Source of the DNA: Ginglymostoma cirratum
Taxonomy: Eukaryota
DNA: 64,000 nt
Assembly: GCA_024137785.1 (NCBI GenBank)
Contig: JAHRHZ010000283.1
Span: 59,475,309 to 59,539,308 of the forward strand
Direction: 5' to 3'
Below are positions 4,099 to 63,699 of this stretch, in pieces. Below the pieces are notes generated by a model. The model ran no database searches. It was not told the DNA's origin and saw nothing but the letters and a program-made list of their open reading frames with translations. Every line of letters starts with the position of its first letter. The first letter of the stretch is position 1. A program made the position numbers and the translations under genes.

Positions 4099-4315
4099 AA
4101 GGTAACAAGGTGTAAAGCTGGATGAACACAGCAAGCCAAGCAGCATTAGAGGAGCAGGAACGCTGCCGTTTCGGGCCTAGACCCTTTTCTGAAGAAGGGT
4201 CTAGGCCCGAAACGTCAGCCTTCCTGCTCCTCTGATGCTGTTTGGCCTGCTGTGTTCATCCAACTCTACATCTTGTTAGCTCAGATTCTCCAGCATCTGC
4301 AGTTCCTACTATCTC
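4099..4315. mobile_element. Penelope-like pLTR inverted (hairpin) insert with hammerhead core
   Basis: Inverted arms 4103-4186 and 4195-4278; CTGAAGA-A-GGGT CTAG GCCC-GAAACGTC at 4189-4216; flanking duplication TCGAGT(A/T)TTGTTCT at 4085-4098 and 4314-4327. Confidence 0.8.
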
Positions 4316-5677
4316 GAGTTTTGTTCTGCTGGATTTAAAATTTTTAATATTTAGTTTTGGTCCCGTAATTTTTATGTGCATTCTAAATTTAATTTCAGCA
4401 TTTGCTGTCTGCTTCACTGCTACCAGAAATAATCCACAGACCTCTGTTGAACGCAATTCTTCAGCAAACTCCAAAGAAACAAGGTTGTCAGCTATTATCA
4501 TCACCTGATTTATAAGTGAGACTTATAAATGTGGCGGAGTTTGACAATGCTTTCAATAACCTCACATTGTGTTGGAACAGCCATGAACAGCTGACAAGAA
4601 CTAACCATATAGTTATTTCTTAAAAATTAATCATTAATGAGAACAGTGTAAATGCTGTATTACTTGACATCATTTAGGGTTAGGAGCTTTGTTATCGACT
4701 TGTGATTAAGTTGGGCAAAGTCTGTATTTCGCCTTTTAAAATCTCATTACTGCTAAAGCAAATGGCTTGTGCATGCAATGGCAATATTGCAAATGGTCTA
4801 AATCTCCCAGCTTACAATTTGTCCATTGTAGAATTGTTCTGTAGTTTGGTTTCTAAGTGTTTGTTTGGATCTTTGTAAAACTAGATAAACACAATAATCA
4901 AAACTAAGGAGGTACAATTCATCCCCTCAATGATAACTTCTGAAGTTGTCTTAACTTCCAATTTGTATTTTGTATCATTTAATTCAAGTGTCTCAGTGTA
5001 GAAACAACAGGCTACCAACTAAAGTACTTGTAATACAGGAGTTAGAGCATCTATCTCATTGTTACTTCATGTAGAGAACTATGCAGGGAATAAACAGTAC
5101 TGTACTGAATTCTTAACAATTTGTGGGATCAGTTTCCTCTGTTTCAGTACTTTATGTGCACGCAAGCCATGCAAATGAGTACAACTTTTAAAAATTTTAT
5201 AAATGCATGCAAAACTAACTTGCGGCATTTAATTCCCTTGTGTCTTCTCCTCATGTAGAATCGTTTTACTTGAAACTGCTAAAAACCTAGAGATTGTTTG
5301 AACAATCAAGTTAACCCAATACGTTTTTCAATAGCAATAGTCTACCTCTTTTTAATACACTTTCATTTATTGCATTTATAGCAATTGGTGGCCCCGTACT
5401 TGATGTTTAAAAAGTCACAAGATTCTTGATCTTCTGGACACAATTTCCAAATCAAAGAAAGCTAATGTTAAGAAACAAATGTTTTTAACATACAAAGTTC
5501 TGAAAGAAAAAAACATTCCTTTTCTTTCAAGATACAAACAAATCCTTAACTAGACCACTAAACTCCAAACATACGATCCAAAAGTTACTTTATGATTTGG
5601 GTAAGTCTACTGCTGACCACTGGGTAGTACCTTGGGGAAGTGCTAGTGGGAGTGATTGATAGAGTGGCTGTTCCAAG

Positions 5678-6339
5678 AATTGTTGTTTCAATGATTTGTC
5701 CTTTGGCTTTTGAAATACAATAAATATTGTTTTAGTACAGAATTGTTTTAAGTGATTTTTGATGATTCAATACATGATTATGTGGAATTTGCTGATCTCA
5801 GGCGTTTCAATAGTCAGTGCATTGACAATTGGTTCCAATGTGCCATCATGTTTGTACAGTCATAGCAAATTGATCGTATATAGGTGTTGAGCAAGGATTA
5901 CCTCAGTGACTGAACAGCAAAAAAATGGCCATATTGGCTTGGATATGGGACAGCGGAAGATTCAGGTTCATTGTGGGAACAAAGTAAATTTATATTTACA
6001 TGAAAGACTTTGTGGTACAAATAGACATAGCCAGGTGTGAGTACTACTTCATGGCTGAGTACCACATTTTATTTTGTATGAACTCTACAGCCCATGAAGT
6101 TTTTATTTTTCCTCATGTGTTTACTATTTATCTTGTACATTATCTGGAGCAGAAGTATCTTCATGTTTACAGTAACTAGATATCCAGGTCAATAGAAACT
6201 GAATCATGATAAACAATATTTGTGTTTATACATTAAAGATGTATAATTGTTGTTTCAATGATTGTCATTTGGTCCTTTTGCTTTTGAAATACAATAAATA
6301 TTGTTTTAGTACAGAATTGTTTTAAGTGATTTTTGATGA
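5678..6339 (+). repeat. Dispersed direct repeat of ~90 bp containing AATAAA
   Basis: 5706-5765 and 6280-6339 are identical over 60 nt; similarity extends ~30 nt further upstream in both copies. Confidence 0.85.
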
Positions 6340-6775
6340 GTTAAAAAATAGAAAACATCAGTAAGCCCTAGAGAAGTAAACTTACTAACCTGGGCTTAGT
6401 AATGAAAATAAAATTTAGAAATTTCTAACTAGTAATATTACATGTAAACAGACCAATCAGAGCTATCTATCAAAATAGGAGGGTAGAGGAATAGTTTCCT
6501 TAAAATACAGAACTTGTAACAAACGTAGAAAATCTTTTATAAGTGCAGTTATGATCCAAAATTCAAACTAATTTTGCACCTCTGGTTCAAAATTAATTTT
6601 ATAAGAGAGTCACCTTTATTCCAACCATAACAGGCATTGTGGATCCTTCAAAAGGGAATTATTAGCAGTCCATAAATTCATAGTACAACAATTTCATTAG
6701 CTTAAGGAATAGCAGATTTTGCACTGCTTGTTAAGGAAGGTTTGATTTTTTAAAAAAAAAATTTAAAACATTGTT

Positions 6776-6966
6776 CTCTCTTGGCTCCATCGCCATCTAT
6801 CGTTTTTTCCCCACGCCTTCACCCTTGTCTTCAGCATATATACCATCTTTACGTAGCTACAATCAGTTCTGAAGAAGGGTCACTGGACCCAAAACGTCAC
6901 CTCTGCTTTCTCTCCCCGTTTGTTGCCAGACCTGCTGGGTTTCTCCAGTAATTTCAGTTTTTGTTT
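6776..6966 (+). mobile_element. Penelope-like pLTR fragment (family B) with mutated hammerhead
   Basis: CAGTT-CTGAAGA-A-GGGTC ACTG GACCC-AAAA-CGTC at 6864-6898 (G12 changed to A), then the typical gccagacctgctg...ctccag tail. Confidence 0.7.
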
Positions 6967-7009
6967 AAAACATTGGTTCAGCCTTTAGTGGAGTATGGAG
7001 TCCAGAAGA

Positions 7010-7560
7010 AGAGATATAGCATTAGAGAAGACGTAGAAGAGATTCACAATTATTCAAAGTTCAGAAGCTTTGGTTATGGGGATAGATTTGAGAAACAGAC
7101 CATTCCTCTTGAAAAGATATGATAGAAATATTCAAAAATCTTGAGGTCTGGACAGTGTATAATGGGGAAGAAACTGTTTCCATTGATGGAAGGATTCAGA
7201 ACCAGTGGACATAGTTTAAAACGATTGTCAAAACAAGCACTGATGGAAGATTTTGTTTAAAAGATACACTGAACTGTTGAGTTGCATTGCACTGCCTGAC
7301 AGTGGTGGTAGCAAGATAATTTGAGGCCCTTAAAAGAGTTGCATAGTTAACTGGTTAGAACATGCAATGTGAGGTGAAAGTTATGATTTAATGTTTTTCT
7401 GCTGCAAAGATGCCCAATGCCCACACACCAGTTGGCTTGCCCAGACCCTCTGATCAACCGTGCAGTCATGTAGCTTAAAAGGAACATTGGATGGGAGGGG
7501 GTGAGTGGTACGAGGCGAAGACACATGGTGGATTCTATGCTGCAATCATTCTATGCTTCT
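7010..7560 (+). mobile_element. Degraded CR1 LINE 3' fragments
   Basis: Decayed ...RRFT...FKILRGLD...FPL..GSRTRGH similarity and attctatg tail repeats. Confidence 0.55.
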
Positions 7561-13741: not shown

Positions 13742-14505
13742 CAGCCATGGCTCAGTGGTAGTGCTTTTTCCCTAGAGTCAGAAGGATGTGACTCCAAATC
13801 CAAAATCTTCAGTACCTGCTGTCTGTTGACAGTTCATAATCACCACTAAGGAGAGATGGGGCAGTGTTAATGTTGCTGGACTAGTTGTCCAAAACTGCAG
13901 GTTAATGTTCTGGGGACACAGGTTTGAATCCTACTATAAGATGGCAAAGTATGAAGTAAATAAAATTCTTGAATTAAACCTAGCCTAATGGCAACAATGT
14001 AACAATTGTCATGAAAGCAGATCTGGTTCACTAATTTCCTTTAGGGAAGGAAATCTTGTCATCCTTCCCTGGTCTGCATACATGACTCCAGATTCAAAGC
14101 AACGTGGTCAACTCTTAACTGTCCTCTGTCCTCCATTCAAGGGCAATTATGGATGGGCAACAAACACTGGCCATGCCAGTAATGCCTAACTCCCACGAAA
14201 CAGCAAAGAAACAGATGCAGTACTAAAGTATGACACTGTCAGGAGGTAACATTTTTCAGTGAGATATTAAACAATGACCACTTTAGAAGACACGAGGAGT
14301 TCCAAGGTCATGGCCAACACTGATCACTCAACAACACCCTAAATGAATTGTTTGTCATTTATCTAATTCACATTTTGGTATTACCTCACTGCACAAAGAT
14401 TGGTTCCACTATTTGCCTACATTACAAGAATCACTATAAAAGTTCTGCTCCGATAGTGAAGAACTTTGGAGCATTCAAAGGTTGGGAAAGATGCTGTACA
14501 CAATC
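13742..14505 (+). mobile_element. Deu-domain SINE (SacSINE1-like), split by a younger SINE
   Basis: tRNA-like head TGGCTCAGTGG at ~13748; Deu core remnants (tggccaacact..., cctacattacaa...actttgg...gaaagatgct) at 14215-14505. Confidence 0.6.
13855..14200 (+). mobile_element. tRNA-derived SINE, family 2
   Basis: B-box GGTTTGAATCC, core atctggttcactaat..ctttagggaaggaaa, tail gggcaa..aaacactggcc; further copies in the window. Confidence 0.75.
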
Positions 14506-15105: not shown

Positions 15106-15432
15106 CGGCAGCATAGTGGCTCAGTGGTTAGCACTGCTGCCTCACAGCGAGAGGGACATGGGTTTGATTCTCAGGCAACTGTGTGTGGAGTTTGTACATT
15201 CTCCCAGTGTCTGCATAGGTTTCCTCTGGGTGCTCCGGTTTCCTCCCACAGTTCAAAGACATACAGGTTAGGTAGATTGGCCATGGTAAATTGCCCATAG
15301 CATCCAGGGATGTGGGGTTGAGCCACTGGAAATGCAGGTTTGGGAGAGGGGTGAGTAGGAGTCTGGGTGGGATGTTCTTTGGAAGGCCAGTGTGGACATA
15401 TTGGGCCAAATGGCCTGTTTCCACACTGTAGG
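15106..15432 (+). mobile_element. HE1-like V-SINE (full length)
   Basis: A-box TGGCTCAGTGG, B-box GGTTTGATTC, V-domain ctgtgtggagtttgtacattctccc...ggtttcctcccacag, CR1-like tail gggccaaatggcctgtttccacactgtaggg. Confidence 0.85.
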
Positions 15433-15924
15433 GAGGAAGGAGTACAATGCAGTGCTGGGAAATGGAGAAGGAAATAGGTTCAAACTGTTGGCTATGAGAG
15501 GACAGGACATGTGCAAGCTTATCCACACTTCCTTTTTTACTCATGTTCCAAACAAGGTTAAGTCAATCGCTCCCTCAAACTACAATGGATGGGGGAAAAA
15601 AGGCCAACACCTATCATGATGTTAGGGTTTCATCCATCATGGAGGGGGTGTTGAGGGAGGTATGGAGAATTAAAAGCACAGCTACGCCAAGAATTAACTC
15701 TTGACTTTCTGTGGGGGACATGAGACTGAAACATTTGGTTTAGGAGCAAGGGAGAACCATCCTGATCCACCTATAATGGCAGTTTTGTCTGTGGTCTCAT
15801 CTACACTTTACTGTCAGCACCCCACAACTCACTGGTGAGTCAAAATCAGGCCAACCTGGCTCAAATTGGAAACCACCTGCACTCTATAGAACCTCAGAAA
15901 AGAATTCTCACACACCCTCACTCA

Positions 15925-16120: not shown

Positions 16121-16445
16121 AACCATCTCTAGTAATTCTTGTCTCCACAACAAGGAGAAAGTATCCCCCTAGTGTCCATCTCGAGATCTTAGATGCGTGA
16201 ACAAGATCACCACCGTGGGATAACAGGTGCAGGCCATTCAACCCATCGAGCCTGGCCCATCATTCAGTACCATCATGGTGTAACGCTGTACACCACAAGG
16301 ACTCAAAATCTCTCAATCTCTACCTTAGCCAGGACTGAACTTCCACAGGTCTCTATGGCAGAGAATTCCGACTCTCAGATCTGCGATGGATTCAGAAGTA
16401 TTCCCCTAAGGAATTTCCACACGTTCCCCCCGCAACCCGACTCAC

Positions 16446-16671
16446 CGGCAGTGCTGGAGGCCGGGCTTTCAGGGCAGCGCTGCCCTTGCCCCTGTTGCTT
16501 CTCCTGCAGGACGAGCTCGGTCAGAGGTGCCTGGAGTTTCTGCTGCAAGAGGCGGACTCCGCTCAGGACACCCGGGATGGTGCAGGAGGTGCGGACAGTG
16601 AAGTGGCGGCGCTCGCCGCTCCGGGAGCTCAGCTCCCCGCACAGCTCGCACTCAGAGGCCGGGGCGGACAT
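16446..16671 (-). CDS. GON7: GON7 (C14orf142, KEOPS subunit) exon 1
   Basis: MSAPASECELCGELSSRSGERRHFTV...GVLSGVRLLQQKLQAPLTELVLQE resembles human MELLGEYVGQEGKPQKLRV...GLLSGVAQMKDMVTELFDPLVQGE; GTGAGT donor at 16445; 226 nt, phase 1; head-to-head with UBR7 as in human. Confidence 0.88.
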
Positions 16672-16980
16672 TCCGACAGCGGGGTTGCTGAGTACCCGGG
16701 CACAGGGCCGCCTCTTACTATCGGCAGCGGAAGAAAATAATCAGTAATAGGTGGTAGCAAAAGAGACAGCGCAGCGCAGGCAGCTTTCCGGTAAATAGAC
16801 GTAACAATAAGAGACCCCCCCCAAAGTCACCAAGTGCAGGATCCGGGAGCGGCCCTCAGTCTCTTATTTACAGCGGGCGGCGTATTTAGTGAAACAGGGT
16901 TAGAGTTAAGGGGGGGGGGGGGAAACGCAGCTTTAAATAGCCCCAACCCGGAAGTCTTTGTACATTTCGAGATGGCGGCA
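16672..16980. promoter_or_regulatory. Bidirectional CpG-island promoter of GON7 and UBR7
   Basis: 300 bp between divergent ATGs; CpG-rich; ETS/GABP sites TTCCGGT 16786-16792 and CCGGAAGT 16948-16955; YY1-like AGATGGCGGC 16970-16979. Confidence 0.8.
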
Positions 16981-17124
16981 AACGAAGGGAATCACAAGCG
17001 GCCGCTAGAAGAGGAAGATCCCATCGTATCTCTAGCCGATGTTCTGGAAGAGGATGAGGAGCTGGAGAACGAAGCCTGCGCCGTTTTAGGCGGCAGCGAC
17101 TCCGATAAATGTTCCTACTCGGAC
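16972..17124 (+). CDS. UBR7: UBR7 exon 1
   Basis: MAANEG...VSLADVLEEDEELENEACAVLGGSDSDKCSYSD; donor GTGAGG; phase 0. Confidence 0.95.
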
Positions 17125-18099
17125 GTGAGGTTTTATTTCTGACGGTGTGCCGGTGATTTTGGGGGGTGTGGGGTGTTGGAATGTGTTCTTTGTCTGTGCG
17201 GAGCTCCTTGGAATCGTGCAATTCCCCCCCGCCCCCTCCCCATCCCAGTCCGACCCCCACGCTCGGGTCGAGGTCTTGAACTGGGGGAATCTTGATTCAC
17301 AGCTGGAAAGGGGCGTGCATGCTATAAAGAAATATTTGTAACTGTATGTCCTTGTGTATATGTGCGCGGTTATCATCTGATTTCACTCCTCTTCTTCCCC
17401 CCCCCCCCAACTCCCAAAAGAAATCATAAACCCACAACAATGCAGGAACCATCCGATTCCAACTGACTCTGCGGATGGAAAATTAGCATCTTTTATGAAA
17501 GAAACACGATTTTTAAAAAATACCCGTGGTTTGAGGGTGCAATGTTGATGGTTGCTGCAGATTGGTGGGTCCCTATAGATTCAGCAACAACAGCCGTGTT
17601 AATTACATCTCCATATCAGCCCTCCCGCCCCCCTTCCATCTGGCGCCTTTTTCATGTCATATGTTTAAGCCTTTGTGATTGGCCAGAGCGCAGAGGATTG
17701 GTTACAATTTGGAATGTTGATACTTGTCTAGGGGCGGGGCCAGGGACTGGTGGAGGATGGGGAAGGGCATTCCTGATCTGTCGTGGTGGCACGGGGTGGG
17801 AGATCGGTGGGCATCAGATCTGTGGGACTCTGGGGCGGGTTTGTGAAGTCTGCATCTCCTGGATTCAGGGAGCTTGTTCTGTGCTCCATTTGCTTTGTAC
17901 GATCCGACACCGCGAATCCGAAGGCCCTGAGCAGCCGCAGGCTGAGAGTTGGGCTGCCACCGTCCCTACAGAACTAGTGGAGACCCGCACGCTGTCCGTA
18001 GATGTTGCAATGACTGAGCTGCTGCTTCATCTGCTAACTGGACAGTGTGTCAACAGCTAACGTTAAAGTGATGGAGAGTGCCTCAGGAATGTAGCGAAG

Positions 18100-18530
18100 C
18101 AAAATCTGAGACTAACCATGTAAGGAAATACCATGGCAAAAGCTGAATAGGTTGGGCAAAGAGGTCATTTTGAAGTGGCACCTTGAAAGGATGGAGAAGA
18201 TGTGGCGATTCAAGGAGAATGTTCCATAGCCTATAACACTGAGGACAATGCTTTCAGCCCCTTTATGGTGGAGTGATGAAAATCAGGGAGGCCAGAGTTA
18301 AACATAGAGATAGCGTGGAGGGTTTTTGGATTATGGAGAGGAATGAGGTCAAGGATAGACTTGAAAATAAGGTTGAATTATATAAAATCAAGTCTTTGCT
18401 TGATTGGAAGTCAGTGTAGTTCATTGAGCACAGGGTTGGTGCAAATTTTTTCAGCGCAACAGATGTTTGTGTGAGCTCTAGTTTGAGTGTGCAATATCGG
18501 GAACCAGTCAGGATGTGTAGGGTCACACTT
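18100..18530 (-). mobile_element. Old L2-like LINE fragment
   Basis: Decayed purine-rich sequence resembling the reverse strand of an L2 3' region; no intact frame. Confidence 0.35.
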
Positions 18531-18634
18531 CTATATTCAAGTTATTTCTGTTTGTTGTGCACAACAATGTTTCTTTCAGCTGAAGGTATGAAAGAAAGAA
18601 ATCAAAGAAATCTATTGTGATTGGCATTTTTCAA

Positions 18635-21406
18635 AGAACAAAGAAAACTTACAGCCCAGGAACAGGCCCTTAGGCCCTCCAAGCCTGTGCCGATCCAAAT
18701 CCACTGTCTAAACCTATCGCCCAATTCCTAAGGATCTGTATCCTTCTGCTCCCCACCTACTCGTGCATCTGTCCAGACGCACCTTAAATGAATCTACCGT
18801 GCCTGCCTCTACTACCTCTGCTGGGAACGCGTTCCAGGCACCTACCACCCTCTGTGTAAAGTACTTTCCCCGTGGATCCCCCTTAAACTTTTCTCCTCTC
18901 ACCTTGAACGCATGACCCCTCGTTATTGAATCCCTCACCCTGGGAAAAAGCTTATCTCTATCAACCCTGTCTATACCCTTCATGATTTTGAAGACCTCAA
19001 TCAGGTTCCCCACTCAATCTCCTTTTTTCTAATGAAAACAATCCTAACCTACTCAACCTCTCTTCATAGCTAGCACCTTCCATACCAGGCAACATCCTCG
19101 TAAACCTTCTCTGTACCCTCTCCAAAGCTTCCACATCCTTTTGGTAATGTGGCGACCAGAACTGCACACAGTATTCTAAATGCAGCCGAACCAAAGTCTT
19201 GTACAATTTTAACATGACCTGCCAGCTCTTATACTCAATACCCTGTCCGATGAAGGCAAGCATACCATATGCCTTCTTGACCACTCTATCCACCTGCGCA
19301 GCCACCTTCAGGGTACAATGGACCTGAACTCCCAGATCTCTCTGCTCATCAACTTTTCCCAAGGCTCTTCCGTTTACAGTATAGTTCGCTGTAGAATTAG
19401 ACCTCCCAAAATGCATCACCTCACACTTGCCCGGATTGAACTCCATCTGCCACTTCTCCGCCCAACTCTCCAGTCTATCGATATTCTCCTGTATTCTTTG
19501 ACAATCCCCTATGCTTTCTGCTACTCCCCCAATCTTCGTGTCATCTGCAAACTTACTGATCAGACCACTTATGCCCTCTTCCAGATCATTTATGTATATC
19601 ACAAACAACAGTGGCCCCAGCACTGATCCCTGTGGAACACCACTGGTCACCTTTCTCCATTTCGAGAAACTCCCTTCAACTACTACTCTCTGTCTCCTGT
19701 TGCTCAACCAGTTCTTTATCCACCTAGCTAGAACACCCTGCACACCATGTGACTTCACTTTCTCCATTAGTTTACGATGGGGAACCTTATCGAACGCCTT
19801 ACTAAAGGCCATGTAGATGACATCTACAGCCCTTCCTTCATCTATCAACTTGGTCACTTCCTCAAAGAACTCTATTAAGTTAGTAAGGCATGATCTCCCC
19901 TGCACAAAACCATGTTGCCTATCACTGATAAGCCCATTCTTTTCCAAATATAAATAGATTCTATCCCTCAGTACCTTCTCCAGCAACTTTCCCACCACTG
20001 ACGTCAGGCTTACTGGTCTGTAGTTACCTGGAATATCCCTACTACCCTTCTTGTACAGGGGGACAACATGAGCAACTCTCCAGTCCTCCGGCACTTCACC
20101 TGTGTTTAAGGATGCTACAAAGATATCTGTCAGGGCCCCAGCTATTTCCTCTCTCGCCTCCCTCAGCATCCTGGGATAGATCCCATCCGGTCCTGGGGAT
20201 TTGTCCACCTTAATATCCTTTAGCCTACCCAACACATCTTCCCTCCTTATGTCAACGTGATCCAGAGTAAACAAACTTCTATCTCTAATCTCAACATTCA
20301 TCATGTCCCTCTCCTCAGTGAACACTGATGTAAAGTAATCATTGAGAATCTCACCCATTTTCTCAGGTTCGACACAAAACCTTCCTTCCTTATCCTTTAG
20401 TGGACCAATCCTTTCTCTAGTTACCCTCCTGCTTCTTATATATGAATAAAAGGCCTTGGGATTCTCCTTAATTCTGTTGGCTAAAGTTATTTCATGACCC
20501 CTTTTAGCCCGCTTGATTCCTCGTTTAAGATTGGTCCTACTCTCCCGATATTCCTCCAAGGACCGTTCTGTTCTTAGCTGCCTGGACCTTATGTACGCTT
20601 CCCTTTTCCTCTTGACTAGTCGCACGATTTCTCCTGTCATCCACGGTTCACGAATCTTTTCTTTCCTTTCCTATCCCTTGTTTTCAAAGGGACATGCCTA
20701 TCCTGCACTATCTTCAACCTATCTTTGAAAGCCTCCCACATATCAAATGTGGACTTCCCTTCAAATAGCTGTCCCCAATCCACATTTCCCAGCTCCTGCC
20801 GAATTTGGATATAATTGGCCTTGGCCCAGTTTAGTATTCCTCCCTTAGGACCACTCTCATCTTTGTCTACGAGTATTCTCAAACTCACAGAATTGTGGTC
20901 ACTGTTCCCAAAGAAATCCCCCACTGCAACTTCTACCACCTGGCCTGGCTCATTCCCCAACACTAGGTCCAATATGGCCCCTTCCCTAGTTGGACTATTG
21001 ACATACTGCTCTAGAAAACTTTCCTGGATGCTCCTTACAAATTCTGCCCCATCCAGACCTCTGACACTAAGCGTATCCCAGTCAATGTTGGGAAAATTAA
21101 AATCTCCCATCACCACCACCCTGTTACCTCTACATCTTTCCATAATCTGTCAACCTATTTGTTCTTCTACCTCACGCTCACTGTTGGGAGGCCTGTAGTA
21201 CAGCGCCAACAATGTAACTGCACCCTTCTTATTTCTCAGCTCTACCCATAATGCCTCACTGTTCAAGCCCTCCATCGTGCCCTCCTTCAGCATAGCCGTG
21301 ATATCATCCCTGACCAGCAATGCAACTCCTCCCCCACTTTTACTTCCCTCCCTGTCCTGTCTGAAGCATCTATATCCTGGGTCATTTAGTTGCCAATCAT
21401 CCCCTT
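18635..21406 (-). mobile_element. Young 5'-truncated CR1 LINE (APE endonuclease + RT ORF2), inactivated
   Basis: Consecutive ORFs give [51 protein letters not shown]; broken by one TGA (~21150) and two frameshifts (~20660, ~19010); possible TTTCAA duplication at 18629-18634 and 21405-21410. Confidence 0.95.
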
Positions 21407-21559: not shown

Positions 21560-22020
21560 GGCACTGGATAACTGTTAATCCAGAGACCAAGGTCATGTTC
21601 TGGTAACATGAGTTCAAATCCCACCATGGCGGGTGGTGGAATTTGAATTCAATAATAGTCTGGAATTAAGAGTTTGATGACTGTGTAATGGTTGCCAATT
21701 GTCAGGAAAAAAACTCATCTGGTTCACTCATTTTCTTTGGCTGGCCTGTTGGCTTGGTGGTCAGCACTGCTCCCCCACAGCACCAGGGACCCGGCTTCAA
21801 TTCCAGCCTCGGGTGACTGTGTGTGGAGTGTGCGTGTTTTCCCTGTATCTGTGTGGGTTTCCTCCACAGTCCAAAGGTGTGCAGGTTAGGTGAATTGGCG
21901 ATACTAAATTGTCCAGTGTCCAGGGATGTGTAGGTTAGGTGGATTAGCCATGGGATATGCAGAGCTACGGGGATAGGGTAGAGAAATCACATGTTTCTAC
22001 ACTGTAGGGATTCTAGATTA
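21560..22020 (+). mobile_element. Family-2 SINE 5' part followed by an HE1-like V-SINE
   Basis: GAGTTCAAATCCCACCATGG head at ~21610; V-domain and ctgtagggattcta tail at 21752-22020. Confidence 0.75.
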
Positions 22021-23582: not shown

Positions 23583-23792
23583 AGAATCACAGAAACCCTA
23601 CAGAGTGGAATCAGGCCATTCAGCCCAACGTGTCCACACTGCCCCTCCGAAGAACATTTCACCCAGACCCATTATCCTATCCCTGCACTTCCCATGTCTA
23701 ACCCACGTAACCTAAACATCCCTGGACACTATGGGGAATTTAGCATGGCCAGTCCACCTAACCTGCACATCTTTGGACTGTGGGAGGAAACC
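23583..23792 (-). mobile_element. HE1-like SINE 3' part
   Basis: Reverse complement of the V-SINE end and CR1-like tail. Confidence 0.75.
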
Positions 23793-43600: not shown

Positions 43601-44910
43601 CATGCTCGATAAATCTGCTGGAATTCTTCAAGGATGTAATGAGTAGGGTTGATAGGGGGAGCCAGTGGATGGAGTTTATTTGGACTTTGAGAAGGCTTTT
43701 GACAAAGCCCCACATAAGAGATTAATGTGTAAAATTTAAAGCGCGTGGTTTTGGGGGTACTTCGATGTATTTCGATGGAAAGAAAGCTGGTTAGCAGAGA
43801 TGAAGGGTTTAGGCCCGAAACGTCAAGTTTTCCTGCTCCTATGATGCTGCTTGACCTGCTGTGTTCATCCAGCCCCATGCTTGTTATCTCTTAAGCTGGT
43901 TAGCAGACAGGAAATGAGAATAGGAATAAATGGGTCTTTTTCTGATTGGTGGGCAGGTGCTGCAGGGATCGACACTGGGACCCCATCAATTCACAATAAT
44001 ATGTTAATGGTTTAGACGAGAGAACTAAAAGCTGGGTGTAAGGGTGAGCTGTGAGGGGGATGTAGAGATGTTGCAGTGTGATTTGGACAGGCTGAGTGAG
44101 TGGGGAAAATGCAGTATAATGTGGATAAATGAGAGGCTAACCACTTTGGCAGCAAGAACAGGAAAGCAAACTATTAGTTGAATGGCTGTAAATTGAGAAA
44201 GGGGAATGTTCAACAAAACCTGGGTGTCCTCATGCACTAGTCACTGAAAGTAAACACACAGGTGGCAAACTGTACATTGACCTTCATAATGAGAGGTATT
44301 GAGTAAAGGAACTAAGATGTCTTTCTGAAATCATACAGAGCATTGTTGACGCTACACCTGGATTACTGTGTGCTGTTTTTGTCTCCTTCTCTACAGGAGA
44401 TGCTCTTACTATTAGAGGGAGTGCAGTGAAGTTCACGATATTGATTTGTGGAATAGCAGCACTATTGATGAGGAGAGTTTGAGTTTGGTTGTATTCACAC
44501 TGAGTTTGGTTGTAGGCTTGTATTCACTGCAGTTTGGAAGAATGAGGGGGGAATCTTATAGATTTCTCTAAAATTTTAACAGAACTAGACTAAAGGATGT
44601 TCCTGATGGCAGGGGGAGTCCAGAACCAGGGGTCATAGTTTAAGTATAAGGGTAAATCTTTAGGACTGAGATGTGGAGAAATTTCTTCATCGAGAGTACT
44701 GAACCTGTGGAATTCACTACCACAAAGTGGTTGAGGCCTAAACATTGTTTTCAAGGAGGTGGATATGGCTGTTGTGGCTAAAGGCATGGAGGGATACGGG
44801 GGAGGGTGGGATTAGGGTATTGAGCTCAATGATCAGACACCACGTTGAATGGTGGAACAGGCTCGAGGAGTTGAAAGGCCTGTTGTTCTTATCCTCTGTT
44901 TCTACAAATG
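40700..44910 (+). mobile_element. Near full-length decayed CR1 LINE (ORF1 esterase remnant + ORF2)
   Basis: EQPVVVV remnant, YTNAQSI, MGDFN, SDHN, NKEMADE, YRPVSL, QHGFIKAKSC, and a 3' tail; many stops and frameshifts. Confidence 0.85.
43799..43892 (+). mobile_element. 94-bp Penelope family-A insert nested in CR1
   Basis: GATGA-A-GGGT TTAG GCCC-GAAACGTC-AAGT...; perfect 15-bp TSD AAGCTGGTTAGCAGA at 43784-43798 and 43893-43907. Confidence 0.85.
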
Positions 44911-46655: not shown

Positions 46656-47324
46656 GTAAGGATTGTTCAATGTTTTATTGTCTGAAATTTGTTTTACAGC
46701 TATCAGAACTTCAAGGTTAAAATGAACCGCATACCTCATGTGGAATTGTGCCAAGTTCTGTGCTGTTTACTGATGTTAATGGGGTTGCAACAGGAACACA
46801 ATTTGGCTACGTTACAGTGGTGGAGGTGGGGACTGGGCAGTTGGAAGGGAGAATTGGCCTACTATCCTACTGTGTGTCCGGCCTTGAACACTGATCTGAG
46901 GAAATTTTTGTTAGAAGATGAGTATTGAATAAGCTTGCACCTTGGGGGCTGTTACTTTTTTTTTGAAACCTTCCCTCAGTAAGATGTACAGAAGGAAAGA
47001 ACAAAAACACTGAGGTTAGATAAGGTAAAGTACTTTAGATTCCTGCTAAATTCCAGATCTTGTGTAAAACCATGCAAGTGATCCAATCTAATTCAAGAGT
47101 TTGGGTATTTCTTTACTGATCCATCCTCTGACAGTTCTGCGTTATTCCACCTTGGCTTCTCTGGAGCCGTGGTCACAAGGCCAGACTCCTTACACCTTTT
47201 TCTCCTTTAAGCTCAGGAGGAAGAGTTTTTTTTTTGGCTTGGTTTCAAGTGGAACTAAAACATCTTCAATAGTGACTTTAGCCAACTTGGCATTTTTGCC
47301 CTACTATCCGGAAAGATTTTTTTT

Positions 47325-47635
47325 AAATCATTCGTGGGACAAGGGTGTCACTGGCTAGGCCAGCATTTATTGCCCGGGGGCAGTCAAGAGTCAACCACAT
47401 TCTGTGGATCTGGAAGCTCACGTAGGCCAGACCAGGTAAGGGTGGCAGTTTCTGTCCCTAAAGGACATCAGTGATCCAAGTGGGTTTTTTTTGACAATGG
47501 AGTTGCGGTCATCATCAGACACTTAATTCCACATTTGTATTGAATTCAACTTCCACCGTCTGCCATGGCGAGATTCAAACCTGGGTCTCTGGATTAATAA
47601 TAGAGCCATAATACCACTATGCTGTTGCCTCCCCT
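47325..47635 (-). mobile_element. Family-2 SINE
   Basis: Reverse complement of the 13855-14200 family, nearly complete. Confidence 0.75.
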
Positions 47636-47771: not shown

Positions 47772-50765
47772 CCATAAGACATGGGAGCAGAAATTAGGCC
47801 CCTCAGCCCATTTGAGTTTGCTCCAACATTCAATCATGGCTGATAAGTTTCTCAACCCCTTTCTCCCAATAACCCTTGATCCCCTTGACAATCAGGAACC
47901 TATCTATCTCTGTCTTAGATATACTCAATGACCTGGTCTCCACAGCCTTCTGTGGCAGCGAATTCCATAGATTCACTATTCTCTGGCTGAAGACGTTTCT
48001 CCTTATCTCTATTCTAAAAGGTCTTCCCTTCCCTTTACTCTAAGGCTGTGCCCTTGGTTCCTAGTCTCTCCTAGCAATGGAAACATCTTCCCAACATCCA
48101 CTCTGTCCAGGCCATTCAGTATTCTGTAAATTTCAATGAGATGCCCCCCCTCATCCTCCTAAACTCCATCGAGTATAGACCCAGAGTCCTCAAACGCTCC
48201 TCATATGTTACACTTTTCATTCCTGGGACCATTCTCGTGAACTTCCTATGAACCTGCTCCAGGGCCAGTCCGTCCTTCCTGAGATTTCAGGCCCAAAACT
48301 GCGCACAATACTCCAAATATGACCCGACCAGAGCCTTATAGAGCCTCAGAAGTACATTCCTGCTTTTATATTCAAGTCCTCTCAAAATACGTGCCAAAGT
48401 TGCATTTACCTTCCTAGCTACTGACTCAACCTGCAAGTTTACCTTGAGAGAATCCTGGACTAGAACTCCCAAATCTCTTTGCACTTCAGACTTCTGAATT
48501 TTCTCCCCGTTTAGACAATAGTCCATATCTCTATTCTTCTTTCCAACGTGCATGACCTCACACTTTTTCCCATGTTGTACTCCATCTACCACTTCTTTGC
48601 CCACTCTCCTGACTTGTCCAAATCCTTCTGCAGCCTCCCCACCTCATCAACACTACCTCTTTTTGTGTCATCTGCAAACTTAGCCAGAATGCCCACCGTT
48701 CCTTCATCTAGATCGTTAATGTATAAAGTGAAAAGTTGTGGTCCCAGCACTGACCCTTGTGGAACACCACTTGTCACTGGCTGCCATCCTGAGAGAGACC
48801 CTTTTATCCCCACTCTCTGCTTTCAGCCAGACAGCCAATCTTCTATCCATGCTAGCATCTTGCCTCTAACAACATGGGACCTTATCTTACTCAGCAGCCT
48901 CCTATATGACACCCTGTCAAACACCTTCTTGAAGTCCAGGTAGATAACATCCATTGGCTCTGCTTGGTCTAACCTGCTCATTTCCTCCAAAGTATTCTAG
49001 TAGACTTGTCAGGCATGACCTCCCCTTGATGAAGCCGTGCTGACTTTCCCCATTTAGCCATGCACTTCCAAGTATTCAGAAATCTCATTCTTCACAATGG
49101 ACTCTCAAATCTTACTCACAAGCGAGGTTAGGCTAATAGGTCTGTCATTTTCCGTCTTTTGCCTTACTCCCTTTTTAAACGGGGGTGACGCATTAGCGAT
49201 TTTCCAGTCCTTTGGGACCCTCCCTAACTCTAGCGATTTCCTGAAAGATCATCACTAACACCTCTGCCATCTGTTCAACTATCTCCTTAAGAACTGTGGG
49301 CTGTAGTCCATCTGATCCTGATGGTTTATCTACACCTTCAGGCCATTCAGTTTTTCTAGCACCTTCTCCTTGGTGATCCTCAGCTCTGCCCCTTGACTCT
49401 TGAATTTCTGGGATATTACTCGTGTCTTCTACTGTGAAGACTGATGCGAAGTAATTATTCAGTTCCTCAGCCATTTCCTTGTTCCCCACTACCAACTCTC
49501 TATAGTGTCATCTCTCTAGTGCTAGCCAGGGTAGAAATGAAAGAATAGGCAGGATGAACACGTGGCTTGAGGGATGGTGTAGGAGAGAGGGGTTCAGATT
49601 TGTGGGACACTGAGACCGGTTCTGGGGAAGGTGGGACTATTACAAATTGGATGGTCTACACCTGAACCAGACTGGAACTAGTGTCCTAGGGGGAGTTTTT
49701 GCTAGGGCTGTTGGGGAGGGTTTAAACTAATGTGGCAGGGGTCTGGGAACCAGAGGAGAAGACTAGTAGACAGTGAGGTGGAAACTAGAGACTGTAAGGA
49801 TCATGAAGTTAGCATTACCAAGGGGAAGAGTAGGCAGAGAGCAGATGAACGCAAAGGAACTGGTGTTCTGAAGTGCATATACTTTAATGCAAGGAGTATA
49901 GTGGGTAAGGCAGACGAGCTTAGGTCTTGGATTAGTGCCTGGGAGTATGATGTTATTGCGATCACAGAGACTTGGTTGAAGGAAGGGGATGATTGGCAAC
50001 TAAATGTCCCAGGATATAGATGCTTCAGACAGGACAGGGAGGGAAGTAAAAGTGGGGGAGGAGTTGTATTGCTGGTCAGGGATGATATCACTGCTGTGCT
50101 GAAGGAGGGCACTATGGAGGGCTTGAGCAGTGAGGCATTATGGGTGAGCTGAGAAATAAGAAGGGTGCAGTTACATTGTTGGCGCTGTACTACAGGCCTC
50201 CCAACAGTGAGCGTGAAGTAGAAGAACAAATAGGTCGACAGATTATGGAAAGATGTAGAGGTAACAGGGTGGTGGTGATGGGAGATTTTAATTTTCCCAA
50301 CATTGACTGGGATACGCTTAGTGTCAGAGGTCTGGATGGGGCAGAATTTGAAAGGAGCATCCAGGAAAGTTTTCTAGAGCAGTATGTCAATAGTCCAACT
50401 AGGGAAGGGGCCATATTGGACCTAGTGTTGGGGAATGAGCCAGCCCAGGTGGTAGAAGTTGCAGTGGGGGATTTCTTTGGGAACAGTGACCACAATTCTG
50501 TGAGTTTGAGAATACTCGTAGACAAAGATGAGAGTGGTCCTAAGGGAGGAATACTAAACTCATTGCACAACATTAAATCCAGTATTGCCTGTTCCCTAGT
50601 GGGCTCCACCACAAGTTGCTCCAAAAAACCATCTTGTACACATTCCACAAATTCCTTTTCTTGCAATCCACAACCAACCTGATTTTTCCCAGTCCACCTG
50701 CATATTGAAATCCCCCATGATCACTGTAACTTTTGCCTTTCTGCACACCTTTTCTATCTCCTGGT
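47772..50765 (-). mobile_element. CR1 LINE with internal deletion, interrupted by an opposite-strand CR1 segment
   Basis: RT region ([16 protein letters not shown]) at 47772-49513; endonuclease part (MGDFN...LDLMLCNE) at ~50559-50765. Confidence 0.88.
49514..50560 (+). mobile_element. Internal segment of the young CR1 family (ORF1 end + endonuclease start)
   Basis: ...DGLHLN...GEGLN* then CIYFNARSIVGK...IAITETWL...; 49983-50560 is near-identical to the reverse complement of 20828-21406. Confidence 0.9.
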
Positions 50766-55650: not shown

Positions 55651-55656
55651 TTTATT
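55651..55656 (-). terminator. Candidate BTBD7 poly(A) signal
   Basis: TTTATT on the + strand, ~2.8 kb beyond the BTBD7 stop, after a long AU-rich, repeat-poor tract. Confidence 0.4.
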
Positions 55657-58491: not shown

Positions 58492-59289
58492 CTAAAGAGC
58501 AGATTTTTTGTATGGAAGATCAGGTCTGCTTGGTGATCTCCTTTCTCGGCTTAACGTATCTTCCCTATTCTGAATGTTTCTGTGTGGCTGGACACTGACT
58601 CCTGGCTCCAGCATGCCATCATCAGATGACCTTCTGTTGTAGCTGGCCTCATGGTTGTCAGAACTACAAGGCACACGCAAAGCTCGACTTGCCGTTAGGC
58701 CATAGGTTAGATCTGTCTCCATTAAACCCCTACTTCTAGTATGCAGAGACCCTCCACTAGACTCCTGTAAAAGTGCCAAGTCCAACCTGTGTGGAGGCTG
58801 CTCCAAGAAATCAAAGTACGGTGGGCCACTGGGTCGGGGCTGATGAACTTCCGGAGGCAGAAAGTATTCTCTCCGTGGTTCTTCTGGTTTACTCGAGGTT
58901 TCACTGCAAAGTGAGGTCATTTTGAAACTTGCTGCTGCTGGCCTATTGTGACTGTATAAGTCTGGACCCAAAAATGCTCCTTGTGCAGAAGCTGACGTAT
59001 GTCTGCTGGTTCCTGGAGCGTATGATCGGTAAGCTGTGCTGGAAGAGAAGTCATACAGATCTGGATACTCCACTTTCAGGTCAGGTTTCCTCCTCGTACT
59101 ACTGTGTGTATGCCTATTGTGTATATATGGAGCAGGACGTGGAAATGATGCAGAATCTGAAGCCATTTGGTTTATTTCAGCATTCAGACTCAGTTCTGGA
59201 AATCTTCTATCCTTCAGTGATAGATTACTCAAGGACGTCACACCCATCGCAATGTCTGGCATTAGTTCATTTAAGGTACCTTCAGTATT
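58492..59289 (-). CDS. BTBD7: BTBD7 terminal coding exon
   Basis: NTEGTLNELMPDIAMGV...EYPDLYDFS...GPDLYSHN...ETDLTYGLT...RRSPSRPDLPYKKSAL*; AG at 59291-59290. Confidence 0.93.
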   Translation of the reverse strand, partial: NTEGTLNELMPDIAMGVTSLSNLSLKDRRFPELSLNAEINQMASDSASFPRPAPYIHNRHTHSSTRRKPDLKVEYPDLYDFSSSTAYRSYAPGTSRHTSASAQGAFLGPDLYSHNRPAAASFKMTSLCSETSSKPEEPRREYFLPPEVHQPRPSGPPYFDFLEQPPHRLDLALLQESSGGSLHTRSRGLMETDLTYGLTASRALRVPCSSDNHEASYNRRSSDDGMLEPGVSVQPHRNIQNREDTLSRERRSPSRPDLPYKKSAL

Positions 59290-60442
59290 CTAGGAGAATT
59301 TTTTTAAAAAAGACATTTATAAAATGAAACAAATGTAGCATTTCTAACTCCATAGCTTTATAAACGAGACCACAAATATACTGAACATAATTTGTCAGAT
59401 ATTTACCAGCATGCAAAATCTTTTGAATAAATTAGATTAAATATGAAATCTTATTAAATTTTGTATTAAAAGCATCTCAGTTGGAACTTAAAAACACAAA
59501 AGCAATGGACAACTAAACATTCTCAGGTAATCATTAGCAGGGAATCCTCTTGACAACATCTTTGTGCTTTTCCTACTCTTACAATCAAACTGATCCCTGG
59601 ACTGAGATCACATCAACATTCTCCATCAATAGGAGAAACAGTTCTCTCAAGGTGAATAGTCATTCAAATTAAACAATTAGATTTTTTGAAAAAAATCATT
59701 TTGAAAGGAGATCAGTTACAGCCGGTTCTGCAGGGTTCAGATGTTTCATTATTAAAATAAAATAGGGATCTTGCCTACAGCATTTGCTAACGTCCAATAC
59801 ATTTTCTCAAAGGTACCAGAACAATTTTCTTTGCTCACAAGTAAGAGCACAAGAGAAAAAAATTTAAAACAGGTGATCAAACAGGACGAGGCACCTGGTA
59901 TGCAGCTTCATTTCATGGAAGCTTGAACAATCTTCCAACAGGTTGAACAATCAATGCAGAAGTCTGCAAACTTGCTCTGCAGAACTACTGAAATTATAGA
60001 AATCAGTAGCATTGGTACAAAAGTGCACTCACATTGGGACCCAGAATACGCAAAAATCAGTCCCAGGTTTACTAGTTATTTGAAACACAAATTTCATGAA
60101 AAATTAACAGTTTTGTAGCATGCACTGTGAAATGTACGCTTATTGTACGGTAATACAAAATAGGAAACAAACTAATGTGGTTTTGACTAGTTAGAAATAA
60201 ATGCTCAATTTATTGAACAGCAGCAGCTGACTGAGGCTATCTGCTACTGAAGTCTAAAGGGGAAAAGAAAGGCACTATTTGGTCTCATTGACTGCTTGTC
60301 AATAACTCAGATTAAAATTAACTCAGTAGAAATATACTAATACCCCATTTTAGGTTCTAAAATCTAGGCCAAAAATTGTAAAGAAAGATACAAACTCTCT
60401 CACATCTTATTACTAATCTAATATTGGAAAGGCAGAACTTAC

Positions 60443-60829
60443 CGTCAGCTCTGGTGCTATCCGAACCAATCCAGAAGAGTTGGTGCAATCAGGAGGCATT
60501 ACTTTACCACCAGATGGATAAACAGGCCTGGGAGCTATCACAGGATACAGCATAGAACGGTTACAAGGGTATGACAAGGAGCGGGATGACAATTGGCCCG
60601 GCAGCCTTTGTCTCCAATCTACCTTGTGTTTCTCATGAGCTGGGGGAGCAGGAGGCTGATATGGTGGTGGTGGTGGTGGTGGTAAAGTTGGATGGAATGC
60701 AGCACAAGGTTCAATATCACTATATTCTGCAGATGGTGAGCTATTTATTCTACAGTGGTTGTGCTGCCGAAGACCCAGCAGTGGACTCTCATCACCAAAT
60801 CGTTCATGAGGAAAGAACTTATGAGGATT
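60443..60829 (-). CDS. BTBD7: BTBD7 penultimate exon
   Basis: NPHKFFPHERFGDESPLL...AFHPTLPPPPPPPYQPPA...SRSLSYPCN...PPDCT; 387 nt, phase 0/0. Confidence 0.93.
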
Positions 60830-61191
60830 CTGAGGAGAGTAAACATAATTCATTATCAGAGCTATCCTTCCATACCTATATTTACAGAATACTGTATAAA
60901 CATCTACTCGTTTTAAAAAACTCTGTGGAGTATTAACAGTAAGAAAAATTCTAATCTGCAGATTAATAATTTGAATTGCAGCCTAAACAATTCAAAAGTG
61001 ATTTAGTAAATCTTGCCTAGCTAGTTATATTGCAACAAATTGCTTTGGTCAGAAACCAACTATGCAAGACATTGCTTAATAGTTTTCTGAAAGCACAGTT
61101 GTACCTTCTTGAACATAAATTGACTCTTAAATCAGTTTTAGTCTGCACTGATCAATTACATTATTTATAGGGTCAGTAACATTTCACATAC

Positions 61192-61370: not shown

Positions 61371-62023
61371 CTGTAAAGTAATGTTTATTTATTTAATTAA
61401 ATACAAAATTTCTTGCAAAGTATTTTAGACATTTTATAGGGGAATAGAAACATGGGTGGCGAATCTTTAAAAAATGTCAAGATGTACTTTGTCACCAGGT
61501 TCTAGAGCAGTGCCTCACTCAAGCGGTCACCATTTACGTGTCAGCCTCTTGTAGGGAAGATATTGAGGCTATATGACTCTTACAGACTTAGGTCTGCCAT
61601 ACATACCTTCATTAATTAAACGGTATCAGCTTCTCTCTTACTTTGAGTAAGAACTCTCATTTCTTTAAATTCACTCATATACAATAGGATTTTCATGAAG
61701 CCCTGTGATCAAACTGGATCTGTGCACTGAATTAGTATACAGAGACAAAAAAAAAACAAAACCCAAGAAAAAAAAAGCCAGTTTACTGGAGTCACTTCTC
61801 CAAAAAAGCTAAAATTCAAACTTAGAAATCTGCATTATTTAAGCAAGATAATAAGATCGTCTTCCAGGGCTACAAACCAACACAAGTACAACAGGTATAA
61901 CCCAACGGGCCAACGCAAATTAAAGATTTTACTTTCAGTGCATCCTGAATTATGCTAGAGGCATGTTAATTGTCTGAAAATGCTCTATTACACAAAAAAA
62001 ACGTTGTTAAAACTGGACGCAAA

Positions 62024-62055
62024 GTTAAAGCTTTTCATTTTCTGCTCATCAGGAC
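62024..62055 (-). ncRNA. Degenerate hammerhead motif (family D)
   Basis: GUC-CUGAUGA-GCAGAAAAU-GAAA-AGCUUU-AAC; helix III contains the AAGCUU palindrome; helices I and II partly decayed. Confidence 0.45.
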
Positions 62056-62364
62056 TAGGAGCAAGAAACAAACTTAAGGGGCACCAATTTTTTTCAACAT
62101 GAAAACAGGGTGCTAAATGTTTGGGCCATTAATGGCATGGAGATGAAATTAGATAATATATTTCGTCTTATGCAGAAGCCAACTGACTTAGTATATCAGA
62201 TTTCTCAAATGCTGTGCAAGTAGATAGGTCATTTCAATGGGGTGGGGATTCATTCGTGAGGGGAGGGTGGTGGTAACAGAAAGAGAGGAAACCAATTGCT
62301 GCCTTGAAAGTCAACATTAAGTCAAAACATGCTGCAATTAAACCACAAAACATGCACCACTCAC

Positions 62365-62554
62365 CAGGTATTTCATTGGCAATAATCGTAGGAGGATTGG
62401 ATGATGGTGTACCTATTGGCTGGTGGCTGATTAAATGACAACATTGTGGTGCTGCACTGTTCACCATGTACAGTGTGTCTGGTACATTTGACATGCGAAC
62501 CATGCGCAGTCGCACAAGATCAGTTTGTTCAACCATCATTTCATCCAAAACAGC
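62365..62554 (-). CDS. BTBD7: BTBD7 internal exon (earlier exons lie beyond the window)
   Basis: AVLDEMMVEQTDLVRLRMVRMSNVPDTLYMVN...ANEIP; 190 nt, phase 1. Confidence 0.95.
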
Positions 62555-63103
62555 CTGAGAACAAAAGTTCATGCAACAATCAATCACACATGGACAGGGA
62601 TTGTCTCTTTCTTTTCTTCTTGCAACAAAGTTGTTGAACTTCTAAAGTGGAAGTGGTGGTTTTGACATCTTTCCATTATATGTTATAGTTTGGAAATTTA
62701 ACAGAAGGATGGACAATTAAAAAGCGTCACTTGTTTTCAGAGAAGTTTATAATTCTTAGTTTTGCTGGAAAATGGGGCTAATCTTAATACTTCATAATGA
62801 AGTTCATCAACTTAACACTAAAGGCTGTTCAGATGAAGAGTAACATTTTACTAGCTGTGGAACTCCAAGCCCCTCATGCCAAAAGCCACTTCTCATTTTA
62901 GGGGAACATACAGTTTTTACCAACAGTGCCCGAAAAGCAAACAGCTGGCTATTAATATTTCCTATCCTAACTGAAGTAACGCTTAAGCCATCAGTTTTGC
63001 GTATTGTTAGAACAAATTGATAGCATGTGAAAAATCAGCAATGCAAATCTTTTCATGTTACCACTACAAGTCACAAATTTACAGCCAAACATCATCATAA
63101 GAT

Positions 63104-63420
63104 TGGAGAAGCAAATTACTGCTGATGCTGGAATCTGTATAGAAAACATCATGCTGGAGATCTAGACTCAAACATTAGCTTGCTGCGTCTCCACAGATGC
63201 TGTCTGACCCAATGTGATCTCCAGCATTTGTTGGAAAACCCCATCTGGTTCACTAATGTCCTTGAGGGAAGGAAACTGCCATCCTTACCTGGTCTGGCCT
63301 ACGTGTGACTCCAGACCCACAGCAATGTGGTTGACTCTGAACTGCCCTCTGGGCAATTAGAGATGGGCAATAAATGCTGCCTAGCCAGTGACACCCTCAT
63401 CCCGTGAATGAATTTTTAAA
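63104..63420 (+). mobile_element. Penelope-like tail remnants (inverted) followed by a family-2 SINE 3' half
   Basis: atgctggagatc...gatctccagcat inverted pair; SINE aaaaccccatctggttcactaatg...catcccgtgaatgaat. Confidence 0.65.
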
Positions 63421-63599
63421 AAAATCATAAAATCGTAAGAAACAGGAGCGAGAGGTCATTCAGACCACTAAATAGGTCTCTGCCATTTAGAAGATTTAGT
63501 TGAATTGACAGTAGCCTTAGTTCCACCTTGCCAGCTGCTCTCCCATATCCATAGATCACTTTGTAAATCAAAAATCTGACAAACTCAGCCCTGAATATA

Positions 63600-63699
63600 G
63601 TTCTGGGGAAGGGTCACCAGACCCAAAACATTAACTCTGCTTTTGCCTTCACAAAGGCTGCCGGACCTGCTGACCTTTTCCAGCAAATTTGTTTTTGTT
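63600..63699 (+). mobile_element. 100-bp Penelope family-B insert nested in a CR1 tail
   Basis: GTT-CTGGGGA-A-GGGTC ACCA GACCC-AAAACATT-AACT (mutated core); TSD CCTGAATATA at 63590-63599 and 63700-63709. Confidence 0.75.

Follow-up and report, generated by a model that had tools for sequence, protein, structure and literature searches.

Why does a 64-kb stretch of the genome of the carpet shark Ginglymostoma cirratum hold so many sequences that look like hammerhead ribozymes (HHRs), and do any of them still cut? The window analysed here is this whole stretch of 64,000 nucleotides (GenBank assembly GCA_024137785.1, contig JAHRHZ010000283.1, positions 59,475,309 to 59,539,308; 40% GC, with one gap of 400 N at 38165–38564), and the hammerhead-like sites lie within and around the host gene UBR7. 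A first-pass annotation had read them as about ten HHR cores from some four families of Penelope-like elements (PLEs), and as a sample of a very large, family-diverse ribozyme population. We find that the motifs are genuine but mostly decayed. They are very probably inert remnants of PLE 3′ ends, truncated on the 5′ side, neutrally decaying and inactive in place.

Hammerhead-like sequence was found at all 11 places that had been named. We denote each site by its residue C3, which renames the minus-strand sites 28994, 29737, 33874 and 62052, previously given by their low coordinate. A scan for CUGANGA, GAAA and UH together with a helix II of ≥4 bp and a palindromic helix III returned four perfect sites (4189 (+), 28994 (−), 35419 (+) and 36085 (+)) versus 0.03 expected per shuffled window in 30 block shuffles, and seven sites with at most one mismatch versus 0.6 expected. 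Full core bases and helix II are kept at 4 of the 11 sites, and six others (6869, 29737, 29948, 33874, 43799 and 63603) are mutated or truncated. As 29737 and 29948 are the two arms of one insertion, the 11 sites correspond to 10 events. The published descriptor for minimal HHRs (min-HHRs; helix I of at least 3 bp, helix II of 3–7 bp and loop of 3–10 nt, as given in Fig. S7 of PMC4209133) matches two sites, 36085 and 28994, against 0.007 in 300 Markov nulls; 4189 and 35419 fail it with a helix I of only 2 bp. An Rfam search of the window gave no hammerhead match at E≤1. Six Rfam matches, all to miRNA-hairpin models and under the gathering score, fell on inverted arms and were dismissed as hairpin artefacts.

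The extra nucleotide after A9, claimed for most copies, is present in all copies of families A, B and C (defined below), whose 10.1–11.1 pair is G–C except at 36085 (G–U). The palindrome said to replace helix III held in part: ACGU is exact at 6 of the 10 family A–C sites and inexact in the rest, and AAGCUU occurs at 62052. This last site (62023–62056, minus strand) is unverified. It has CUGAUGA and GAAA boxes, the palindrome and three of four helix I pairs, and is without the extra nucleotide after A9 and without the G10.1–C11.1 pair; a helix II, a target-site duplication (TSD) and a second window copy were all sought and none was found. Its combination of features is expected 0.01–0.03 times per null window, a post hoc figure, and the boxes alone 6.2 times. 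As most copies are broken or buried, a tally of motif-like strings gives too high a figure for working ribozymes.

Self-comparison of the window assigned the copies to three families. Family A comprises 4189, 33874, 35419, 36085, 43799 and a copy at 38058–38914, family B comprises 6869, 28994 and 63603, and family C comprises 29737 and 29948. The tails of A and B are homologous (score 51 versus 21.6±4.4, maximum 35 in 300 shuffles), whereas the family C tail showed no similarity to A or B (scores 12 and 24 versus ∼15.6±3). There are therefore several families, as had been proposed, but they are three in two lineages, with 62052 left aside. A profile search added older B-like relics at 24044–24127, 34297–34396 and 63162–63227; these and the 38-kb copy of family A had been missed at first. 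A further B-like relic is visible near 33590–33670.

The differing helices had also been read as compensatory. Between A and B, a single pair of helix I is changed on both sides, and helix II differs by one U–G/U–A change and one added pair. The larger helix differences involve family C, which cannot be aligned outside the core, and are thus weak evidence of covariation; since the flanks of C are not detectably homologous to those of A or B, we dropped its cross-family changes altogether as covariation evidence. In the poly(A) reads described below, a one-sided U–G to U–A change at 35435 occurs in 4,199 of 10,203 reads, and independent sequences are few for covariation. Helix II and its loop in family A (35427–35438) make up a 12-mer that is almost a palindrome, and a perfect one in 41% of these reads; pairing between two copies is accordingly predicted to involve helix II and not helix III.

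The link of family A to PLEs runs through its protein. In the 38-kb copy, 38566–38655 (30 codons) is 70% identical to a whale-shark protein (P0170, E=2.4×10⁻⁴), one of two matches at E≤0.001; the other, the top match P0169, is an alpaca repeat protein whose score came from 17 repeats added together, and we discounted it as artefactual. A PLE profile aligns to P0170 with its GIY-YIG end (E=2.4×10⁻⁷). Of its longer relatives, whale-shark P0172 has a Pfam GIY-YIG match above the cut-off and a reverse transcriptase (RT) match below it, and zebra-shark P0174 spans RT and GIY-YIG and then continues into a stretch that matches 35789–36107 (E=1×10⁻¹⁴), its read-through C-terminus ending in a translated family A motif. 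These matches indicate that family A is the 3′ end of an RT/GIY-YIG element. A CxxxxCxxC linker between RT and endonuclease, assigned to the Neptune and Nematis clades in PMC8557442, is present in P0172 and P0175, and judged by this sequence the family A protein would be of the Neptune/Nematis type. Shark gene predictions P0172–P0178 include PLE pieces annotated as uncharacterized proteins.

A metagenome scan returned one locus, L001, a PLE unlike those of sharks on a contig unrelated to the window, which served for reference only; it too has the motif 3′ of a GIY-YIG open reading frame (ORF). The L001 hammerhead (112–145, minus strand) and PLE 3′ end (306–1148, minus strand; thumb, Cys linker and GIY-YIG) could both be delineated, and its helix II is nearly identical to that of family B, with helix I unpaired next to the core. 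A tblastn search with the L001 protein and the PLE profile over 2,845 six-frame fragments of the window gave no significant PLE coding piece. Families A–C are hence minimal type I hammerheads of PLEs, as the first-pass annotation had it: A by the protein link, B by homology and C by the anatomy of its insertion.

TSDs of 9–17 bp were found at 8 of the 11 insertions searched; with 60 random placements per setting, a score of at least 10 arose in 2–5% of them, rising to 20% when the search was widest. Three insertions (4099–4313, 28858–29093 and 29663–30063) are head-to-head inverted pairs with a 33–44-nt extension on one arm, and such inverted arms with one-ended tails are the PLE arrangement shown in PMC8557442 and PMC3846280, explained in PMC11167929 by two RT start sites. 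The first, a family A insertion on the plus strand, joins an inverted arm (∼4099–4186), without the 5′ box of the core and with U16.1G, to a direct arm with an intact min-HHR (4187–4218; C3 at 4189, predicted cut after 4216, helix I of 2 bp); a tail of ∼33 nt is on the direct arm only, and the TSD is 14 bp with one mismatch (4085–4098/4314–4327). The second, of family B, lies on the minus strand in a UBR7 intron, its HHR antisense to the gene, with a 9-bp TSD, a tail of ∼40 nt and an inverted arm at 29011–29091. Its site 28994 is the best-formed min-HHR (28960–28999; helices I and II of 5 bp each), with U15.2 in place of C and U at H17. The third, of family C, consists of inverted arms of ∼180 bp, each with a broken HHR (29737 (−) with A13U and A15.1G; 29948 (+) with A15.1G and a broken helix I), with a 44-nt tail on the right arm only and a 17-bp TSD with one mismatch. 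At 29000–29030 in the second insertion, the predicted cut site is the centre of a 6-nt palindrome at which the inverted arm stops, and a short sense piece follows that begins at this cut site. Complementary DNA run-off from a cleaved RNA end may be one reading of this single case, in which the palindrome leaves a 3-nt ambiguity.

The other insertions are simpler. Family B is represented on the plus strand at 6774–6963 (HHR 6864–6903 with G12A; 12-bp TSD, 6762–6773/6964–6975) and by a short copy at 63600–63699 (HHR with A6G, G12A and G16.2A; 10-bp TSD). Two short family A copies have lost the first residues of the core: 33785–33873 (minus strand; 14-bp TSD with one mismatch) starts at U4, C3 being lost, and 43799–43892 (plus strand; perfect 15-bp TSD) starts at G5, C3 and U4 being lost. 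By eye, the latter seems nested in a decayed long interspersed nuclear element (LINE) copy at 43784–43907, which gives a relative age. A third short copy, 35405–35510 (plus strand), has an intact core (HHR 35417–35448, C3 at 35419, helix I of 2 bp) and an A-rich 11-bp TSD, and is sense in the UBR7 intron 34953–39869. In the same intron and on the same strand, the family A insertion 35789–36213 carries ∼300 nt of PLE 3′ region plus tail, with an intact core at 36082–36115 (C3 at 36085, helix I of 3 bp, U11.1 and U17). The overlooked insertion at 38058–38914, recognized by self-comparison and the shark protein match, has parts on both strands: an inverted arm (38058–38164, minus strand), the 400-N gap, the last codons of the GIY-YIG ORF (38566–38655) and a plus-strand right part with 3′ region and tail, from which the HHR is deleted.

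To see these families in RNA, we placed reads of one unstranded, fragmented poly(A) library (run X15; 12,895,792 records, 24% of the run) on 28700–36400 (7.7 kb) at 85% likeness. Of these records 81,473 (0.63%) were placed, and 92% of the placed records continue into unlike sequence. Depth per direction was up to ∼10,000 for family A, 4,000 for B and 130 for C, with ∼0.5–2 in bins containing host exons; the reads on the A, B and C copies derive from many other loci. The predicted population is thus borne out in its very many copies, but activity as ribozymes is unsupported here. At the broken positions of family C the reads mostly carry the canonical base (A13 in 80/89, A15.1 in 79/89, U1.1 in 113/128 and 175/196), as they do for C15.2 in family B (3,318/4,702) and C17 at 36112 (6,516/6,851); the read differences used number at least 40, from a set with 281 more. 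CpG decay is seen in minorities of reads (U11.1 in 836/4,944, A16.2 in 1,886/12,990). With places counted only from one fifth of the local depth upwards, X15 reads on 28700–36400 showed no pile-up of beginnings or ends at the cut site. Run X16 was set aside (645 placed reads, all partial, with primer-like loose ends), and contig breaks at repeats in X1 and X11 were not taken as cleavage.

Folding of 150–250 nt around each intact core with nearest-neighbour energies gave a helix I probability of at most 0.01 in context for all four (0.01 for 28994). The insertion 4099–4313 folds as a single long hairpin, with a helix II probability of 0. When two motifs were modelled as a double hammerhead, the four pairs of the palindromic helix III formed in all dimers, at a cost of 10 kcal/mol for the 28994 homodimer and 11 kcal/mol for the L001 reference. 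The hairpins at 4099–4313, 28858–29093 and 29663–30063 have arms of ∼80–180 bp and energies of −104 to −317 kcal/mol, and two of them sit in a UBR7 intron as possible substrates for double-stranded RNA pathways or A-to-I editing. In the X15 reads, which come from other loci, places with A>G or T>C were not in excess of those with C>T or G>A.

Overall, these data suggest a model in which PLE 3′ ends (pseudo-long terminal repeats, pLTRs) were likely copied in one by one by target-primed reverse transcription, each insertion being cut short at its 5′ side and bringing along the element's minimal type I hammerhead. In the inserted copies the hammerhead would then decay neutrally, and it is predicted to be inactive where it is located. 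In PMC4209133, minimal motifs showed no cleavage as monomers and weak cleavage as dimers, and in PMC11167929 the anole motif was cleaved only with the element's protein and insertion in vitro had no need of cleavage. By this literature, the parent element, whose helix III is only a 4-nt palindrome, would cut weakly, as a dimer of copies in a tandem transcript and probably helped by the element's protein, and cutting would not be required for insertion. Within the window, the single copies would be without a partner, family A would have only 2–3 bp of helix I, the inverted arms would bury the motif, and the CpGs C11.1–G12 and C15.2–G16.2 inside it would be struck by deamination.

Several observations weigh against these sites being inert, neutrally decaying PLE remnants. 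Within the window, mismatches are fewer in the core (4/96, 4.2%) than in the tail (69/745, 9.3%); the difference is not significant (Fisher p=0.12), which fails to bear out the core conservation above flanks anticipated at first and leaves room for weak constraint or ascertainment. No TSD was found in searches at 36085, the 38-kb copy and 62052, family C and 62052 are without an ORF link, and the tail of C is without similarity to A or B. As the library is unstranded and fragmented, covers 24% of the run and was read at a threshold of a fifth of depth, rare cleavage would escape, and depth at the host locus is only ∼0.5–2 in this read-end test. The nearest-neighbour energies omit core, tertiary and protein stabilization, and even the L001 reference motif comes out 11 kcal/mol above its best fold. 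Finally, random truncation does not account for where the copies begin.

Six of the 10 direct arms begin at about −5 to +2 of C3, within ∼8 nt, and none begins at the cut site. Under exponential truncation with means of 60–150 nt, the chance of such a cluster is 0.002 to 3×10⁻⁵, in a count that excludes four older relics with unplaceable edges. Such junctions suggest that the templates were uncleaved and that the 5′ edge of the motif is a favoured stop or start; ascertainment or microhomology with T-rich targets could instead be the cause. The cluster would also be expected if the short copies were a discrete non-autonomous unit of ∼90–140 nt, SINE-like (short interspersed nuclear element) or a retrozyme monomer, starting at the hammerhead 5′ edge and mobilized by PLE proteins, an explanation that shares the PLE origin and differs in how the 5′ end is set. 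Read depth is in keeping with such a unit, at ∼3,000 some 45 nt upstream of C3, 6,900–13,000 in the motif and 17,000–20,000 in the tails of single copies, and PLE-derived non-autonomous retrozymes, including monomers, are described in vertebrates, one chondrichthyan among them (bioRxiv 10.64898/2026.07.22.740005). However, the start points vary by several bases, 4 of the 10 copies extend 95–300 nt further upstream, none of the sites lies in a tandem array, and the copies share no 5′ leader; moreover, the relics are omitted from the junction count, and the drop in depth is confounded by edge effects and by one copy alone carrying the upstream part. We regard a discrete unit as a possible explanation, though not the likely one. 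Somewhat more tentatively still, we consider that the hammerhead might mark a boundary and not a cut. Most copies would then be discrete, 90–140 nt long and start at the 5′ edge of an uncleaved ribozyme, and the genome would hold ∼100,000 or more intact cores, the densest vertebrate population counted. The edge could arise by run-off to a transcript start at the motif edge, or by release of the RT after the folded motif.

Very unlikely, by comparison, is a double hammerhead of 35419 and 36085 that cuts the UBR7 pre-mRNA, whether co-opted or accidental. The two sites, 666 nt apart in one intron, are both sense; their cores are intact, their ACGU palindromes are complementary, the two can form helices I of 3 and 2 bp between them, and intronic hammerheads conserved in amniotes have been described (PMC6155905). 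Yet in the intron the double hammerhead would cost 38 kcal/mol relative to the free ensemble, with a helix III probability of 1×10⁻⁴, and even as isolated strands it would cost 29 kcal/mol; X15 reads show no read-end pile-up, and the pair are two of very many similar copies. The idea that stretches of ordinary repeats happen to resemble a short consensus, for which the 6.2 box matches per null window, the three of eight box-only window matches that are unrelated and the absence of an Rfam hammerhead might speak, is almost certainly wrong, being already refuted for families A–C by full-descriptor counts far above the nulls and by the motif at the PLE position in the shark read-through protein and in L001, although it may still hold for 62052.

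Among known systems, the min-HHRs in pLTRs of metazoan PLEs (Cervera & de la Peña 2014, PMC4209133) come closest. They share CUGANGA-H, G10.1–C11.1, the extra base after A9, GAAA-CGU-H and a short helix I, and also the lack of a real helix III, mostly solo copies, some close opposite-strand pairs and several families per genome; the layout of family C is close to the Clonorchis motifs in Fig. S3 of that paper. The class, the extra residue, the palindrome, the solo and opposite-strand copies and the many families per genome were thus already described in 2014. In contrast, Table S1 and the text of Fig. S3 of that paper contain no cartilaginous fish, and helix II (4 bp) and helix I (2–3 bp) of family A are at the short end. 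Density may differ as well: intact cores number 4 in 63.6 kb, or 63 per Mb (95% range 17–161), and hits to the Fig. S7 descriptor 2, or 31 per Mb (4–114), figures from one selected window that allow limited extrapolation and may exceed the ∼4,000 per genome in coelacanth and ∼9,000 in Xenopus reported in PMC4209133.

The PAc/Poseidon elements of Anolis (Frangieh et al. 2024, PMC11167929) likewise have an HHR in the pLTR, two classes of 3′ end with a 30–40-nt tail difference, AT-rich targets and no RNA-seq ends at the cut site, but differ from family A, whose protein has the CxxxxCxxC linker, and from the window copies, which are non-coding remnants. Non-LTR retrozymes (Cervera & de la Peña 2020, PMC7229834; bioRxiv 10.64898/2026.07.22.740005) are similar in that type I HHRs sit in short retroposed units that are non-coding and related to PLE pLTRs, and in that copies are very numerous (axolotl has 126,247 motifs; PMC7229834). 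They are tandem units of ∼150–450 bp that give circular RNAs, whereas the window copies are dispersed, single or inverted, with minimal cores. The hammerheads of amniote RECK, CTCL and DTNB (PMC6155905) are also type I motifs in host introns, but are few, canonical and conserved, unlike the high-copy, mutated window copies with their insertion scars. According to the 2026 preprint (bioRxiv 10.64898/2026.07.22.740005), one chondrichthyan has retrozymes, and Neptune and Poseidon PLEs occur in five vertebrate classes. We found no printed account of shark PLE hammerheads in a search that left most subscription journals uncovered, and the whale-shark repeat library (PMC8455134) may include such families.

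The surroundings of the insertions are otherwise ordinary genes and repeats. UBR7 extends over 16972–53993 on the plus strand (11 coding-exon matches to the epaulette-shark protein); its exon at 16972–17124 shares 98% identity with UBR7 of the zebra shark and 96% with that of the epaulette shark, and the hammerhead sites from 28994 through 43799 are inside its introns. A TMEM251 ORF lies at 1313–1756 (Pfam E=4×10⁻⁶⁷). We take 16375–16740, a weak DUF4611 match, to be GON7, and the sequence near 58492–60982 to be the 3′ end of BTBD7; the resulting order of TMEM251/LYSET, GON7-like, UBR7 and BTBD7-like (1313–61000) is presumably that of human 14q32. LINE fragments with Pfam RT and APE-endonuclease matches, presumably of CR1 type, lie at 18997–21406 and 48189–50682. 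The RT frame at 18997–20670 is open over 557 codons, and the pieces 20828–21406 and 49983–50560, each within a UBR7 intron, are 98% identical and inverted. Further dispersed repeats, probably SINEs of two or three families, occupy 14021–14180, 21571–21738, 36722–37034, 47315–47575 and 63228–63426, as well as 15117–15433, 21750–21979 and 23596–23792. A local direct duplication of 90 bp (5678–5765 and 6245–6339) is 90% identical.

Taken together, the analysis adds a carpet shark to the hosts of a motif class known since 2014. If the density of this window were genome-wide, there would be ∼50,000–480,000 intact cores per 3 Gb, compared with 126,247 canonical motifs in axolotl (PMC7229834), whose genome is 28.21 Gb (bioRxiv 10.64898/2026.07.22.740005). 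The finding would gain weight if such a density held throughout the genome and if the 5′ junctions proved to cluster upstream of the cut site more widely. Should the hammerhead indeed mark a boundary, a genome-wide map of 5′ junctions would record directly whether or not PLE templates undergo cleavage in vivo. Many thousands of dated insertions would reveal whether cleaved RNA ever serves as template.

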